Part shown: positions 26,532 to 31,806 of the stretch, one piece after another
Layout: the number at the start of each line of letters is the position of its first letter
Numbering within the stretch: position 1 is the first letter of the stretch
Source of the DNA: Escherichia phage vB_VIPECOMC06
Sequence record: PQ416618.1
Reading direction: 5' to 3' (one strand)
DNA length: 64,000 nt
Translations under genes and position numbers: made by a program
The notes under the pieces: generated by a model
Databases searched by the model: none
What the model saw: only the letters and a program-made list of their open reading frames with translations
Told to the model about the DNA's origin: nothing

Positions 26532-27119
26532 ATGCTTAAATTAGTATTCGCATGCGCACCGTCTAAAACAGTTGATGATAAACTGGAATATGCTTTTGGA
26601 TTAGGCGATGGACTTCCATGGAAGCATATCAAACAAGATATGAGTAACTTTGTTGCTCGCACTAAAAACACTGTAATGATTATGGGTGCTAAGACATTTG
26701 CATCATTACCTCGTCTACTCCCGGATCGTACTCATGTGGTTGTCACTGATATGGCCAGAAAACTGCCTAAGACTAAAACCGACGAACTTGCACATTTCTA
26801 TATCACCCAAGCAGAATTTATTACCTTGGTAATGGGTAGTGAAATTAACTTGTTCAGCCCTTCGACCGACGTACCGTTTAAACTTTCTACTGAACATGTT
26901 GATGTCTCGGTTATTGGCGGTCCTGCTTTATTAAAACAAGCACTGCCTTATGCTGATGAAATTGTGATGACTAAAATCATTAAGAAATGTCGTGTTAATT
27001 CCGATGTTCAACTTGATAAAGATTTCGTCCAAGATATTATGCTTCAACGTTCTATGGTAGAATCTCATTACTACAGAATCGATGAACTCACCGAAATTAC
27101 TGAGAGCGTATATAAATGA
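26532..27119 (+). CDS. frd: dihydrofolate reductase
   Basis: 195 aa; ...[10 protein letters not shown]...IMGAKTF.SLP.LLP.R.H.VV...[17 protein letters not shown]...LTESVYK matches T4 Frd. Confidence 0.93.
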
Positions 27120-27976
27120 AACAATACCAATACCTGATTAATGATATCCTAGAAAATGGTTATGAAACTGACGACCGTACAGGTACCGGCACTATTGCCC
27201 TATTCGGAACTAAATTACGTTGGGATCTGACTAAAGGATTCCCTGCGGTAACAACTAAGAAATTAGCATGGAAAGCTTGTATTGCCGAACTACTGTGGTT
27301 CATGTCTGGTTCTACCAATGTTAATGATTTGCGTATTCGTACTCATGGTAGTCTAATTGAAGGTAAAACTATTTGGGACGATAATTACGAAAATCAGGCA
27401 AAAGACCTTGGATATCATAGCGGCGAACTTGGTCCTATTTATGGTAAGCAATGGCGTGATTTTGGTGGTGTAGACCAATTAGTTGAAACAATCAACCGTA
27501 TTAAAAAATTACCAACTGACCGTCGTCAAATAGTTTCTGCATGGAACCCTGCCGAAATTGACCAAATGGCTCTTCCTCCTTGTCATATGTTCTATCAATT
27601 TAATGTGCGTAATGGGCATCTTGATTTACAATGGTATCAACGCAGTGTAGATGTTTTCTTGGGCTTGCCATTCAACATTGCCTCGTACGCTGCCTTGACT
27701 CATATTGTAGCTAAGATGTGTAACCTTATCCCAGGTGATTTAGTGTTCTCAGGCGGCAACACGCATATCTACAGCAACCACGTAGAGCAATGCAAAGAAG
27801 TTCTTCGTCGTGAACCTAAAGAGTTATGTTCTCTTGAAATTAATTGGCCTAGTAATTTTGAGAATTGGCCTACAAAAATCCAAATGGACTGGGTTACTGG
27901 AACGATGACATATTCTGATTTCGTTCTTAAAAATTACGAATCACATCCAGCTATCAAAGCTAAAATGGCGGTATAA
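27116..27976 (+). CDS. td: thymidylate synthase (uninterrupted, no intron)
   Basis: 286 aa; [34 protein letters not shown]...[13 protein letters not shown]... continuous ORF matches T4 Td exons 1+2. Confidence 0.95.
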
Positions 27977-27977
27977 A

Positions 27978-28319: not shown

Positions 28320-30575
28320 ATGCAAGTAATTAAGAGCAGTGGGGTATCCCAAAATTTTGATGCACAGAAAATTATTCAAGTCTTAACTTGGCAGTGTGAA
28401 GGAACACAAATCGACCCGTATGAATTGTATGAAGAAATTAAGACCCATCTGGTTGATGGGATGAGCACCAAAGATATCCAGAAGATTTGTATTAAAGTTG
28501 CAGCTAACTCGATTTCTGTCGAAGAACCTGATTATCAGTATGTCGCCGCCAAAGGGCTAATGTTTGCACTCCGTAAAGATGTATACGGACAGTTTGAACC
28601 GCCTGCTTTTATCGACCATATTTCTCACTGTGTTAATGAAGGCAAATACGACCCTGAGTTGTTGTCTCAATATTCAGCAGAAGAAATCATTTATCTCGAT
28701 TCACAGATTAAACATGAACGAGACTTTGACCTGACTTATGCTGGTGCTATGCAGCTTAAAGAAAAATATCTAGTTAAAGATAAAACAACTGGGAAGATTT
28801 ATGAAACTCCACAGTTTGCTATCATGGCTATTGGCATGGCCTTACACCAAGACGAAACTCATGACCGTTTGAAACATATTATTCGTTTTTATGATGCCGT
28901 TTCTACTCATCAAGTTTCATTGCCAACCCCAATTATGGCAGGTGCTCGTACTCCGACTCGCCAGTTCTCTAGTTGTGTAGTTATTGAAGCCGGTGATTCG
29001 TTAAAATCTATTAACAAAACTTCAGCATCAATTATTGAATATATTTCTAAACGAGCTGGTATCGGTATCAACGTTGGTATGCTTCGTGCAGAAGGTTCTA
29101 AGATCGGTACGGGTGAAGTTCGACATACAGGTGTTATTCCATTCTGGAAACATTTCCAAACTGCAGTAAAATCTTGTTCTCAAGGTGGTATTCGTGGTGG
29201 TGCTGCTACAGCGTATTATCCGATGTGGCACTTAGAAGTAGAGAACCTATTAGTTCTGAAAAATAACAAAGGGGTGGATGAAAACCGTATTCGACATATG
29301 GACTACGGAATTCAGATTAATGACCTTATGATGGAACGCCTTGGTAAAAATGATTATATTACTTTATTTAGCCCTCACGAAATGTCAGGCGAACTATACT
29401 ACTCGTTCTTTGAAGATCAAGATAAATTCCGTGAGCTTTATGAGAAAGCTGAAAAAGACCCGACAATCAGAAAGAAAAGAATCAAAGCACTAGAACTCTT
29501 TGAATTGTTCATGACTGAACGTTCTGGCACTGCTCGAATTTATCCACAATTCGTTGATAACACGAATAACTACACTCCGTTTATTCGCGAAAAAGCTCCA
29601 ATTCGTCAGAGTAACTTATGTTGTGAAATCGCTATTCCGACTAATGACGTGAATGGTCCTGATGCTGAAATTGGTTTATGCACATTATCTGCTTTTGTAT
29701 TAGATAAATTTGATTGGCAAGACCAAGATAAAATTAATGAACTTGCTGAAGTACAAGTACGTGCACTCGATAACCTGTTAGACTATCAAGATTATCCGGT
29801 TCCAGAAGCTTTAAAAGCTAAAAAGCGTCGTAACTTGGGTATTGGTGTGACGAACTATGCTGCATGGTTAGCTTCTAACTTTGCTTCATATGAAGACGCT
29901 AACGATTTGACTCATGAATTGTTTGAGAGATTGCAATATGGCCTTATCAAAGCTTCAATCAAACTCGCCAAAGAAAAAGGATGTTGCGAGTATTATTCAG
30001 ACACTAAATGGTCTAGAGGCGAATTACCTATCGACTGGTACAATAAAAAGATTGACCAAATCGCAGCCCCGAACTACGTCTGTGACTGGGAAGAACTTCG
30101 AGCTGAACTCAAAGAACATGGAATTCGTAACTCAACGTTGTCTGCACTCATGCCTTGTGAGTCAAGCAGTCAAGTATCGAACTCTACAAACGGGATTGAG
30201 CCCCCACGCGGTCCAGTAAGTATTAAAGAATCTAAAGAAGGCAACTTCCGACAGGTTGTTCCTAATATAGAACATAACATGAGTCTTTACGACTACGCGT
30301 GGAAACTTGCTAAGAAAGGTAATAAACCTTATTTGACCCAAGTTGCTATCATGTTGAAATGGGTGTGCCAATCTGCTTCTGCTAATACTTACTATGACCC
30401 TGCAGTATTTGAGAAAGGTAAAGTGCCAATGTCAGTAATGCTTGACGATCTACTTTACTTCTGGTACTTTGGTGGAAAAAACCTCTACTATCATAACACT
30501 CGTGATGGGTCAGGTACAGATGACTATGAATTAGAAACACCTAAAGCTGAAGATTGTTCTGCTTGTAAGCTTTAA
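28320..30575 (+). CDS. nrdA: aerobic ribonucleotide reductase large subunit
   Basis: 751 aa; class I RNR alpha subunit features; C-terminal ...CSACKL tail. Confidence 0.93.
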   Translation: MQVIKSSGVSQNFDAQKIIQVLTWQCEGTQIDPYELYEEIKTHLVDGMSTKDIQKICIKVAANSISVEEPDYQYVAAKGLMFALRKDVYGQFEPPAFIDHISHCVNEGKYDPELLSQYSAEEIIYLDSQIKHERDFDLTYAGAMQLKEKYLVKDKTTGKIYETPQFAIMAIGMALHQDETHDRLKHIIRFYDAVSTHQVSLPTPIMAGARTPTRQFSSCVVIEAGDSLKSINKTSASIIEYISKRAGIGINVGMLRAEGSKIGTGEVRHTGVIPFWKHFQTAVKSCSQGGIRGGAATAYYPMWHLEVENLLVLKNNKGVDENRIRHMDYGIQINDLMMERLGKNDYITLFSPHEMSGELYYSFFEDQDKFRELYEKAEKDPTIRKKRIKALELFELFMTERSGTARIYPQFVDNTNNYTPFIREKAPIRQSNLCCEIAIPTNDVNGPDAEIGLCTLSAFVLDKFDWQDQDKINELAEVQVRALDNLLDYQDYPVPEALKAKKRRNLGIGVTNYAAWLASNFASYEDANDLTHELFERLQYGLIKASIKLAKEKGCCEYYSDTKWSRGELPIDWYNKKIDQIAAPNYVCDWEELRAELKEHGIRNSTLSALMPCESSSQVSNSTNGIEPPRGPVSIKESKEGNFRQVVPNIEHNMSLYDYAWKLAKKGNKPYLTQVAIMLKWVCQSASANTYYDPAVFEKGKVPMSVMLDDLLYFWYFGGKNLYYHNTRDGSGTDDYELETPKAEDCSACKL

Positions 30576-30627
30576 GTCTTTTGATTATAATTTACTCATG
30601 GATGAGTTAAACTAAGTGAGAAATATA

Positions 30628-31806
30628 ATGAGTACAGTTTTTAACACACAACAAGTCGATGTTTTGAATGAGCCGATGTTCTTTGGTTCTGGTCTTGGTA
30701 TTGCGCGTTATGATATTCAACGCCATAAAGTTTTTGAAGATTTGACCGAAAAACAATTGTCATTTTTCTGGCGCCCCGAAGAGGTAAACTTGATGTTGGA
30801 CTCTGCGCAGTTCAATAAGCTTCCTCAGTTCCAACAGGACATCTTTACAAACAACCTTAAGTATCAATCATTATTAGATTCTATCCAAGGCAGAGCCCCA
30901 TCTGCGGTACTTATGGCACTGATTTCTGACCCTTCATTAGATACATGGGTTGCAACATGGACATTCAGTGAAACTATTCACTCTCGTTCGTATACTCATA
31001 TTATGCGAAATCTTTATACAGACCCATCTAAGGTATTTGATGAAATTGTATTAGACGAAGCAATCATGAAACGAGCTGAATCAATAGGTAAATATTACGA
31101 TGATGTTCTAGTTAAAACACGTGAATGGGAAAATGCTAAAGAAATTTTTAAATGTTTTTCCGAAAATGAATATGATTTGGATGCATATTCAAATAGTCTT
31201 ATGCATGTGGAAGAATGTAAACGTGCATTAATGAAGTCTCTTTATCTCTGCTTACACGTTATTAACGCCTTAGAAGCTATTCGTTTTTATGTATCTTTTG
31301 CATGTACTTTCAACTTCCATAAGAACATGGAAATCATGGAAGGTAATGCAAAGATTATGAAGTTCATCGCTCGTGACGAACAACTCCACCTTAAAGGCAC
31401 TCAGTACATTATCCGTCAACTTCAATCTGGTACTGATGGTGATGAGTGGGTTCAAATTGCTAAAGAATGTGAACAAGACGCAGTTGACATTTTTATGGAA
31501 GTAAATAGACAAGAGAAGGAATGGGCTGCACACCTCTTTAAAGACGGTACATGCCCGGGTATCAATACGCAGAGTATGTGTGCTTTTGTTGATTACTTGA
31601 CTGTGTCTCGTATGAAACAGTGCGGTTTGCCATGCCCAATAACTGATGCTCCGACCAAGCATCCGTATCCTTGGATTCGTGAATATCTGAACTCTGATTT
31701 AGTTCAATCAGCTCCTCAGGAAGTTGAAATCAGTTCTTATCTTGTCGCACAAATTGATAATGATGTAGACCAAAATGTAATCAATTCATACAAAAAATAT
31801 TTCTAA
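30628..31806 (+). CDS. nrdB: aerobic ribonucleotide reductase small subunit (uninterrupted, no intron)
   Basis: ATG at 30628 (MSTVFNTQQVDVLNEPMFFG...); continuous 392-aa ORF with R2 di-iron ligand helices. Confidence 0.93.
   Translation: MSTVFNTQQVDVLNEPMFFGSGLGIARYDIQRHKVFEDLTEKQLSFFWRPEEVNLMLDSAQFNKLPQFQQDIFTNNLKYQSLLDSIQGRAPSAVLMALISDPSLDTWVATWTFSETIHSRSYTHIMRNLYTDPSKVFDEIVLDEAIMKRAESIGKYYDDVLVKTREWENAKEIFKCFSENEYDLDAYSNSLMHVEECKRALMKSLYLCLHVINALEAIRFYVSFACTFNFHKNMEIMEGNAKIMKFIARDEQLHLKGTQYIIRQLQSGTDGDEWVQIAKECEQDAVDIFMEVNRQEKEWAAHLFKDGTCPGINTQSMCAFVDYLTVSRMKQCGLPCPITDAPTKHPYPWIREYLNSDLVQSAPQEVEISSYLVAQIDNDVDQNVINSYKKYF

Follow-up and report, generated by a model that had tools for sequence, protein, structure and literature searches.

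td and nrdB of a Mosigvirus phage are uninterrupted

In a 64,000-nucleotide stretch of DNA from Escherichia phage vB_VIPECOMC06 (sequence record PQ416618.1; hereafter the window), the genes for thymidylate synthase (td) and the small subunit of ribonucleotide reductase (RNR; nrdB) are free of introns, and nothing counts against this intron-free state. We are confident that they are best explained as standard uninterrupted nucleotide-metabolism genes of the genus Mosigvirus, empty alleles of a well-known presence/absence polymorphism. Each gene would be translated directly, without RNA splicing. The two genes and the two positions that are occupied by introns in phage T4 or in the intron-bearing Mosigviruses AV110 and FL31 are as follows (nt, nucleotides; aa, amino acids; a slash marks the point of insertion).

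27116-27976, + strand: td, thymidylate synthase, 286 aa, a single open reading frame (ORF) matching the full PF00303 profile and colinear with spliced T4 Td.
27664/27665, + strand: empty td intron insertion site GGGC/TTGCCA at td nt 549/550, mapped against the junctions of T4 and AV110, which have a 1016-1017-nt group I intron here.
30628-31806, + strand: nrdB, RNR small subunit, 392 aa, an uninterrupted ORF matching PF00268 and colinear with spliced T4 NrdB.
31303/31304, + strand: empty nrdB intron insertion site TTTGCAT/GTACT at nrdB nt 676/677, placed by junction mapping; T4 has a 598-nt and FL31 a 1091-nt group I intron here.

An earlier note on this DNA had described td (286 aa) and nrdB (392 aa) as one continuous ORF each, and the ORFs, the Pfam matches and the gap-free colinearity with T4 all bear this out. 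The td protein covered positions 1-266 of the 266 in the Thymidylat_synt profile (PF00303; 327 bits against a cut-off of 24.3, E = 8.6e-98) and the nrdB protein matched Ribonuc_red_sm (PF00268; 129.9 bits against a cut-off of 33.6, E = 1.5e-37), which places it with the small subunits of class Ia RNR. The ORF program began nrdB at a GTG (30616; 396 aa); starting from the ATG at 30628, the protein has 392 aa and begins with MSTVFN, as in T4 and T2.

Alignment to the T4 exon junctions, proposed in the same note as a check, was carried out after mapping both junctions on the T4 record. T4 td exon 1 ends in ...TTCTTGGGT, followed by a 1017-nt intron and an exon 2 starting with CTACCG; T4 nrdB exon 1 ends in ...TTTTGCGT, followed by a 598-nt intron and an exon 2 starting with GTACC. 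Global alignment to the spliced T4 proteins showed 235 of 286 identical residues for Td and 335 of 388 for NrdB, with gaps only far from the junctions. Alignment to the spliced genes was continuous across td 549/550 and nrdB 676/677, with no insertion or gap at either point, and the CAACG cleavage motif and its spacing were kept at the td site. The note was also right that both T4 genes have introns with endonuclease ORFs: the T4 record places I-TevI in td and I-TevIII in nrdB, the latter being a defective relic and not an active homing enzyme (T4 record; PMC1865063).

Intron sequence was searched for by blastn across the whole 64-kilobase (kb) window using the T4 td, AV110 td, T4 nrdB and FL31 nrdB introns as queries. 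This returned chance matches only (25 nt or less, E >= 0.017), and the same four queries recovered the introns in the control loci. Likewise, with working positive controls, tblastn of the window with I-TevI, I-TevIII, MobE, SegG and the AV110 and FL31 endonucleases found nothing in td or nrdB, the sole match being a gene at 23373-24056. A cryptic interruption inside td or nrdB (a small ORF-less intron, an intein or a programmed frameshift) is effectively refuted by these comparisons, and we give it a negligible probability: the protein lengths match those of T4 and T2 (286 aa for Td; 392 aa, as in T2, for NrdB), td covers its Pfam profile fully, and nothing is inserted compared with the spliced T4 proteins, T2 or the intron-free Mosigvirus genes.

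Scanning with Rfam 15 at the gathering score reported no group I intron in the window, but the same scan reported none in the control loci of T4, AV110 and FL31, whose td or nrdB introns are known. A negative Rfam scan is therefore no evidence of intron absence. A permissive scan of positions 26000-33000 gave chance matches to small nucleolar and long non-coding RNAs only. For automated scans, the caution is that the Rfam group I intron model fails on ORF-containing T4 introns.

Intron-free td and nrdB are the usual state among T4 relatives

Record counts were made in a phage collection that includes duplicate RefSeq and GenBank records, and the figures are approximate. A full td intron was present in 201 records and the td exon-intron junction in 200, against 786 records in which td aligned in one contiguous piece. 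For nrdB, the junction between intron and exon 2 was found in 125 records, 85 of them with a full-length intron; 930 records aligned as one place, a figure that includes some T4-type short-intron alleles joined by the tool, and a full-length nrdB homologue was present in roughly 1,000. From these counts, the share of intron-bearing homologues is roughly 20% for td and 12% for nrdB. Among the best 80 NrdB loci in IMG/VR, 79 were contiguous over the full length and one broke off at the intron position, residue 225.

These figures agree with the literature. Reviews treat T4 as the outlier (PMC2988022; PMC2993671); across about 40 sequenced T4-related genomes, intron-encoded endonucleases are listed only for T4, T6, RB3 and LZ2, and RB69 is reported to have neither homing endonuclease genes nor introns (PMC2993671, Table 5). 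Knowledge that T-even phages differ in whether they carry the td and nrdB introns goes back to the late 1980s (cited in PMC2988022). Being without introns is the usual condition of T4 relatives, to which T4 is the exception; the observation is correct, ordinary and already known.

The earlier note had read the absence of introns, alongside a GIY-YIG gene inserted between genes 33 and 59, as a different mobile-element landscape. This reading is broadly right but overstated: the landscape does differ, by the GIY-YIG gene, yet in an already known way, and the significance implied for the missing introns fails, their absence being the majority state. By itself the finding matters little, the intron-free state being the rule in current databases.

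Close relatives carry introns at the same two positions

Without a break, the 4.7-kb td-nrdB stretch aligned to many Mosigvirus genomes (such as ST0, phi25-307, PhAPEC2 and Shf125875) at 95-96% identity, and a neighbouring 25-kb stretch was 97-98% identical to AV112 and phi25-307; taken together, the window shows 96-98% identity to ST0, phi25-307 and AV112. By sequence identity, the phage is an RB69-like T-even phage of the genus Mosigvirus. Intron-free Mosigviruses of the RB69 type, ST0, phi25-307, PhAPEC2 and Shf125875 among them, share the gene set of the window over the 4.7 kb.

A minority of T-even phages, some Mosigviruses included, have mobile group I introns at td 549/550 and nrdB 676/677. 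Among roughly 150 Mosigvirus-level records, the td intron was joined to a Mosigvirus-type exon 1 in about 21 and the nrdB intron to a Mosigvirus-type exon 2 in about 13. AV110 carries a 1016-nt td intron, 90% identical to that of T4, whose encoded I-TevI is 89% identical to the T4 enzyme; its td exons are 95-97% identical to those of the window. In FL31 the nrdB intron measures 1091 nt and encodes a full-length HNH endonuclease. Since such close relatives have the introns, the window represents the empty allele of a known presence/absence polymorphism. As a group, the intron-bearing Mosigviruses (for td, AV110 and some 20 more; for nrdB, FL31 and some 12 more) have exons 95-97% identical to those of the window and the same flanking genes. 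They differ in the occupied allele and, in FL31, in a T4-type co-conversion tract around the nrdB intron.

In FL31 (locus 5630-6860), the nrdB exon sequence flanking the intron is of T4 type between about gene nt 618 and 699 and of Mosigvirus type beyond. Judged from this pattern of sites, the T4-type part is a compact co-conversion tract that marks the import of the intron from a Tequatrovirus-type donor into a Mosigvirus. At the start of the AV110 td intron (locus 2040-2075), exon position -4 is A and not G, and the intron guide reads GCCTAGG where T4 has GCCTGAG; by manual pairing of the two sequences, the exon-guide helix is kept. The td intron lineage of the Mosigviruses is about 10% diverged from that of T4.

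The empty td site keeps the I-TevI cleavage motif

The window gives exact coordinates for two empty insertion sites in a Mosigvirus background, and the earlier note had suggested that they provide intron-minus target alleles. Judged from sequence, this is plausible: the cleavage motif and its spacing are kept, and near-identical exons have been invaded in close relatives, so that the window alleles may serve as targets. The relevant element of the td site is the following.

27638-27642, + strand: CAACG, the native I-TevI cleavage motif, at -27 to -23 from the insertion site, identified in the sequence by published motif rules (PMC5009752, PMC2988022).

The recognition site of I-TevI spans about 38 base pairs, and its cuts fall 23 and 25 nt 5' of the insertion point (PMC2988022, PMC5009752). 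Positions C1 and G5 of CAACG are critical, the required motif being 5'-CNNNG-3' (PMC5009752). Both bases were present in the window at the native spacing, and the site aligned to T4 without gaps. Eight of the 38 positions differed from T4 in the window and six in T2, the recipient in T4 x T2 crosses (PMC2790892). If an intron-bearing relative infected the same cell, I-TevI would be expected to bind around 27664 and cut at the CAACG motif (27638-27642), and double-strand-break repair would then copy the td intron into the window td.

Against this reading of td as a competent target stand three differences from close relatives. The intron-free td sites of SSE1 and EP02SG equal the spliced AV110 exons except at -4, whereas the window has C, T and A (not T, C and G) at -1, +1 and +6. 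None of the three changes alters the protein; all are at most 6 nt away from the insertion point and fall inside the I-TevI DNA-binding region. The td allele may be resistant to homing, if these changes lower I-TevI binding or weaken the exon pairing of the intron; in particular, all intron-bearing alleles have at -1 the T that is needed for the splice-site U-G pair. We consider such resistance unlikely. C1, G5 and the spacing are intact, I-TevI is described as tolerant of multiple substitutions (PMC5009752), and T2, with a comparable number of differences from T4 (+3 and +6 included), still receives the intron (PMC2790892). Moreover, co-conversion during homing overwrites differences in the flanks, and FL31, another phage with an intron-free td, likewise has C at -1. 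An allele that is naturally homing-resistant or splicing-incompatible would help to explain why Mosigviruses are mostly intron-free despite circulating intron-bearing relatives, and we hold this wider claim to be more doubtful still.

In the spacer of the I-TevI site, the serine codon at 27644-27646 is AGT in the window and in all Mosigviruses examined and TCA in T4 and T2, a switch of codon family; it lies in what we take to be a part of the site without sequence-specific reading.

The choice of donor matters for a mixed-infection homing test, which the earlier note had proposed. RB69-type phages exclude T4 and yield no viable recombinants with it (PMC2993671), which makes T4 a poor donor. 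The right donors would be intron-bearing Mosigviruses, and AV110-type and FL31-type sisters would be suitable natural donors for homing and competition experiments within the genus.

The nrdB site is nearly identical to that of T4

Two positions in nrdB correspond to published cleavage or nicking sites.

31288-31290, + strand: predicted I-TevIII cleavage at -16 to -14 relative to the empty nrdB intron site, located in the sequence from published cleavage positions (PMC1865063).
30749-30753, + strand: equivalent of the MobE-dependent nick in T2 nrdB, gene nt 122-126 (nick position from PMC2790892).

Compared with the intron-deleted T4 gene, the nrdB site of the window was identical from -37 to -3, and within -40 to +25 only -38, -2, +5 and +8 differed. 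A full-length I-TevIII would cut near 31288-31290, and the nrdB intron would be copied in as proposed for td. In the 70 nt around the nick position, the window is T2-like, with seven synonymous differences from T2, compared with 21 between T2 and T4, and its protein sequence was the same as in T2. The window changes at nrdB nt 126 and 129 adjoin the nick mapped in T2.

The intron-free alleles could instead be secondary, an ancestor having lost the nrdB (or td) intron precisely and a short donor-type conversion tract having been left behind. Such past occupancy would account for the T4 or FL31 base that the window shares at nrdB nt 630, 663, 696, 699, 708 and 765-771, where SSE1, AV110 and EP02SG differ, and for a sliding-window comparison in which nt 661-720 were 95% identical to T4 and 87% to AV110. 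These T4-like sites are interleaved, however, with Mosigvirus-type sites (618, 639, 675, 681, 684 and 723-759) and form no single tract, while a real tract, as seen in FL31, runs unbroken from about 618 to 699. In addition, the shared states are the prevailing ones across many other T4-like genera (thirty-odd IMG/VR outgroups), so ancestral retention explains them, and blastn detected no intron remnant in the window. The T4-like patch was thus rejected as a clear footprint of a past intron, its sites being interleaved and its states common in outgroups. We therefore treat the T4-like sites as probable ancestral polymorphism and keep past occupancy as a rival of low probability.

A hypervariable nrdB segment lies at 31138-31227 (gene nt 511-600, about aa 171-200) and occurs in Mosigviruses as one of two alleles. 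The form in the window is also that of SSE1 (90-98% identity), whereas identity to the window drops to about 40% in AV110, EP02SG, FL31 and T4. Because of the alternative variable segment, only six records reach 95% identity over nrdB.

The surrounding genes and other mobile elements

The gene run at 26532-32243, all on the + strand, reads frd-td-nrdA.2-nrdA-nrdB-denA, which is the order of T4 read on the T4 minus strand. In addition to td and nrdB it contains the following features; a seg-like gene elsewhere in the window is listed last.

26532-27119, + strand: frd, from the ORF list, identity confirmed by Pfam.
27978-28232, + strand: nrdA.2-like small ORF, 84 aa, DUF5496 (Pfam PF17600; tblastn with T4 NrdA.2, E = 2e-13).
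28233-28319, + strand: spacer 5' of nrdA with a hairpin at 28262-28284, without an SSE1-type endonuclease gene.
28320-30575, + strand: nrdA, RNR large subunit, 751 aa, uninterrupted (Pfam ATP-cone, Ribonuc_red_lgN and Ribonuc_red_lgC).
30576-30627, + strand: nrdA/nrdB spacer of 52 nt, without mobE, nrdB.1 or a methyltransferase gene.
31833-32243, + strand: denA, from the ORF list, identity confirmed by Pfam.
23373-24056, + strand: seg-like free-standing GIY-YIG endonuclease gene, 227 aa, between 33 and 59 (Pfam I-TevI_DNA-bd above cut-off; GIY-YIG and NUMOD3 weak).

The window resembles T2 in its uninterrupted td (286 aa) and nrdB (392 aa), in a 52-nt nrdA/nrdB spacer without mobE, in the CAACG kept at -27 to -23 and in an nrdB site that is near-identical to that of T4, with A at -2. 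T2 differs in being a Tequatrovirus, with only about 73-78% DNA identity to the window, which is a Mosigvirus; additional small ORFs separate frd from td and td from nrdA in T2, and it lacks a GIY-YIG gene between 33 and 59. Like the window, T2 is without segG. T4 has orthologous genes in the same order, with exons 70-82% identical in DNA and 82-86% in protein and with the insertion points in the same codons. Present in T4 but absent from the window are the 1017-nt and 598-nt introns, the nrdA/nrdB spacer genes mobE and nrdB.1, and segG, which lies between 32 and 59.

In relatives, the td-nrdB region serves as a general hot spot for insertions. Immediately upstream of nrdA, SSE1 carries a free-standing endonuclease gene, which its record calls HNH and in which Pfam matched only an I-TevI-type DNA-binding domain. 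EP02SG has a gene for a 273-aa D12-class N6-adenine DNA methyltransferase in the nrdA/nrdB spacer (locus 3974-4795), the slot of mobE in T4. The window is without inserts of either type.

The GIY-YIG element that the earlier note had placed at 33/59 is present, flanked by gp33 (23038-23376) and gp59 (24049-24702). Of about 153 Mosigvirus-level records, 28 have the gene, annotated there as a seg-like homing endonuclease. By tblastn its protein is 27% identical to I-TevI over the full length, and it has an I-TevI-type C-terminal DNA-binding domain. A relationship to T4 SegG was considered and rejected, BLASTP showing no similarity and the protein being closer to I-TevI. Beyond this gene, no further homing endonuclease gene was found in the window by tblastn with seven endonucleases or by Pfam search of ten unassigned ORFs, a search that did not scan all small ORFs. 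Over their C-terminal halves, the 33/59 protein (about aa 100-226) and the SSE1 endonuclease share 36% identity, and both match I-TevI_DNA-bd; it looks like one DNA-binding module is common to these two differently annotated nucleases.

Further downstream, a 330-aa ORF at 37200-38192 is a DAHP synthase (Pfam DAHP_synth_1, E = 2e-74), a gene of the aromatic amino-acid pathway that is named aroF in the relative phi25-307 and that T4 does not have. It lies directly upstream of a 193-aa ORF at 38192-38773, which is likely cd, judging by T4 gene order.

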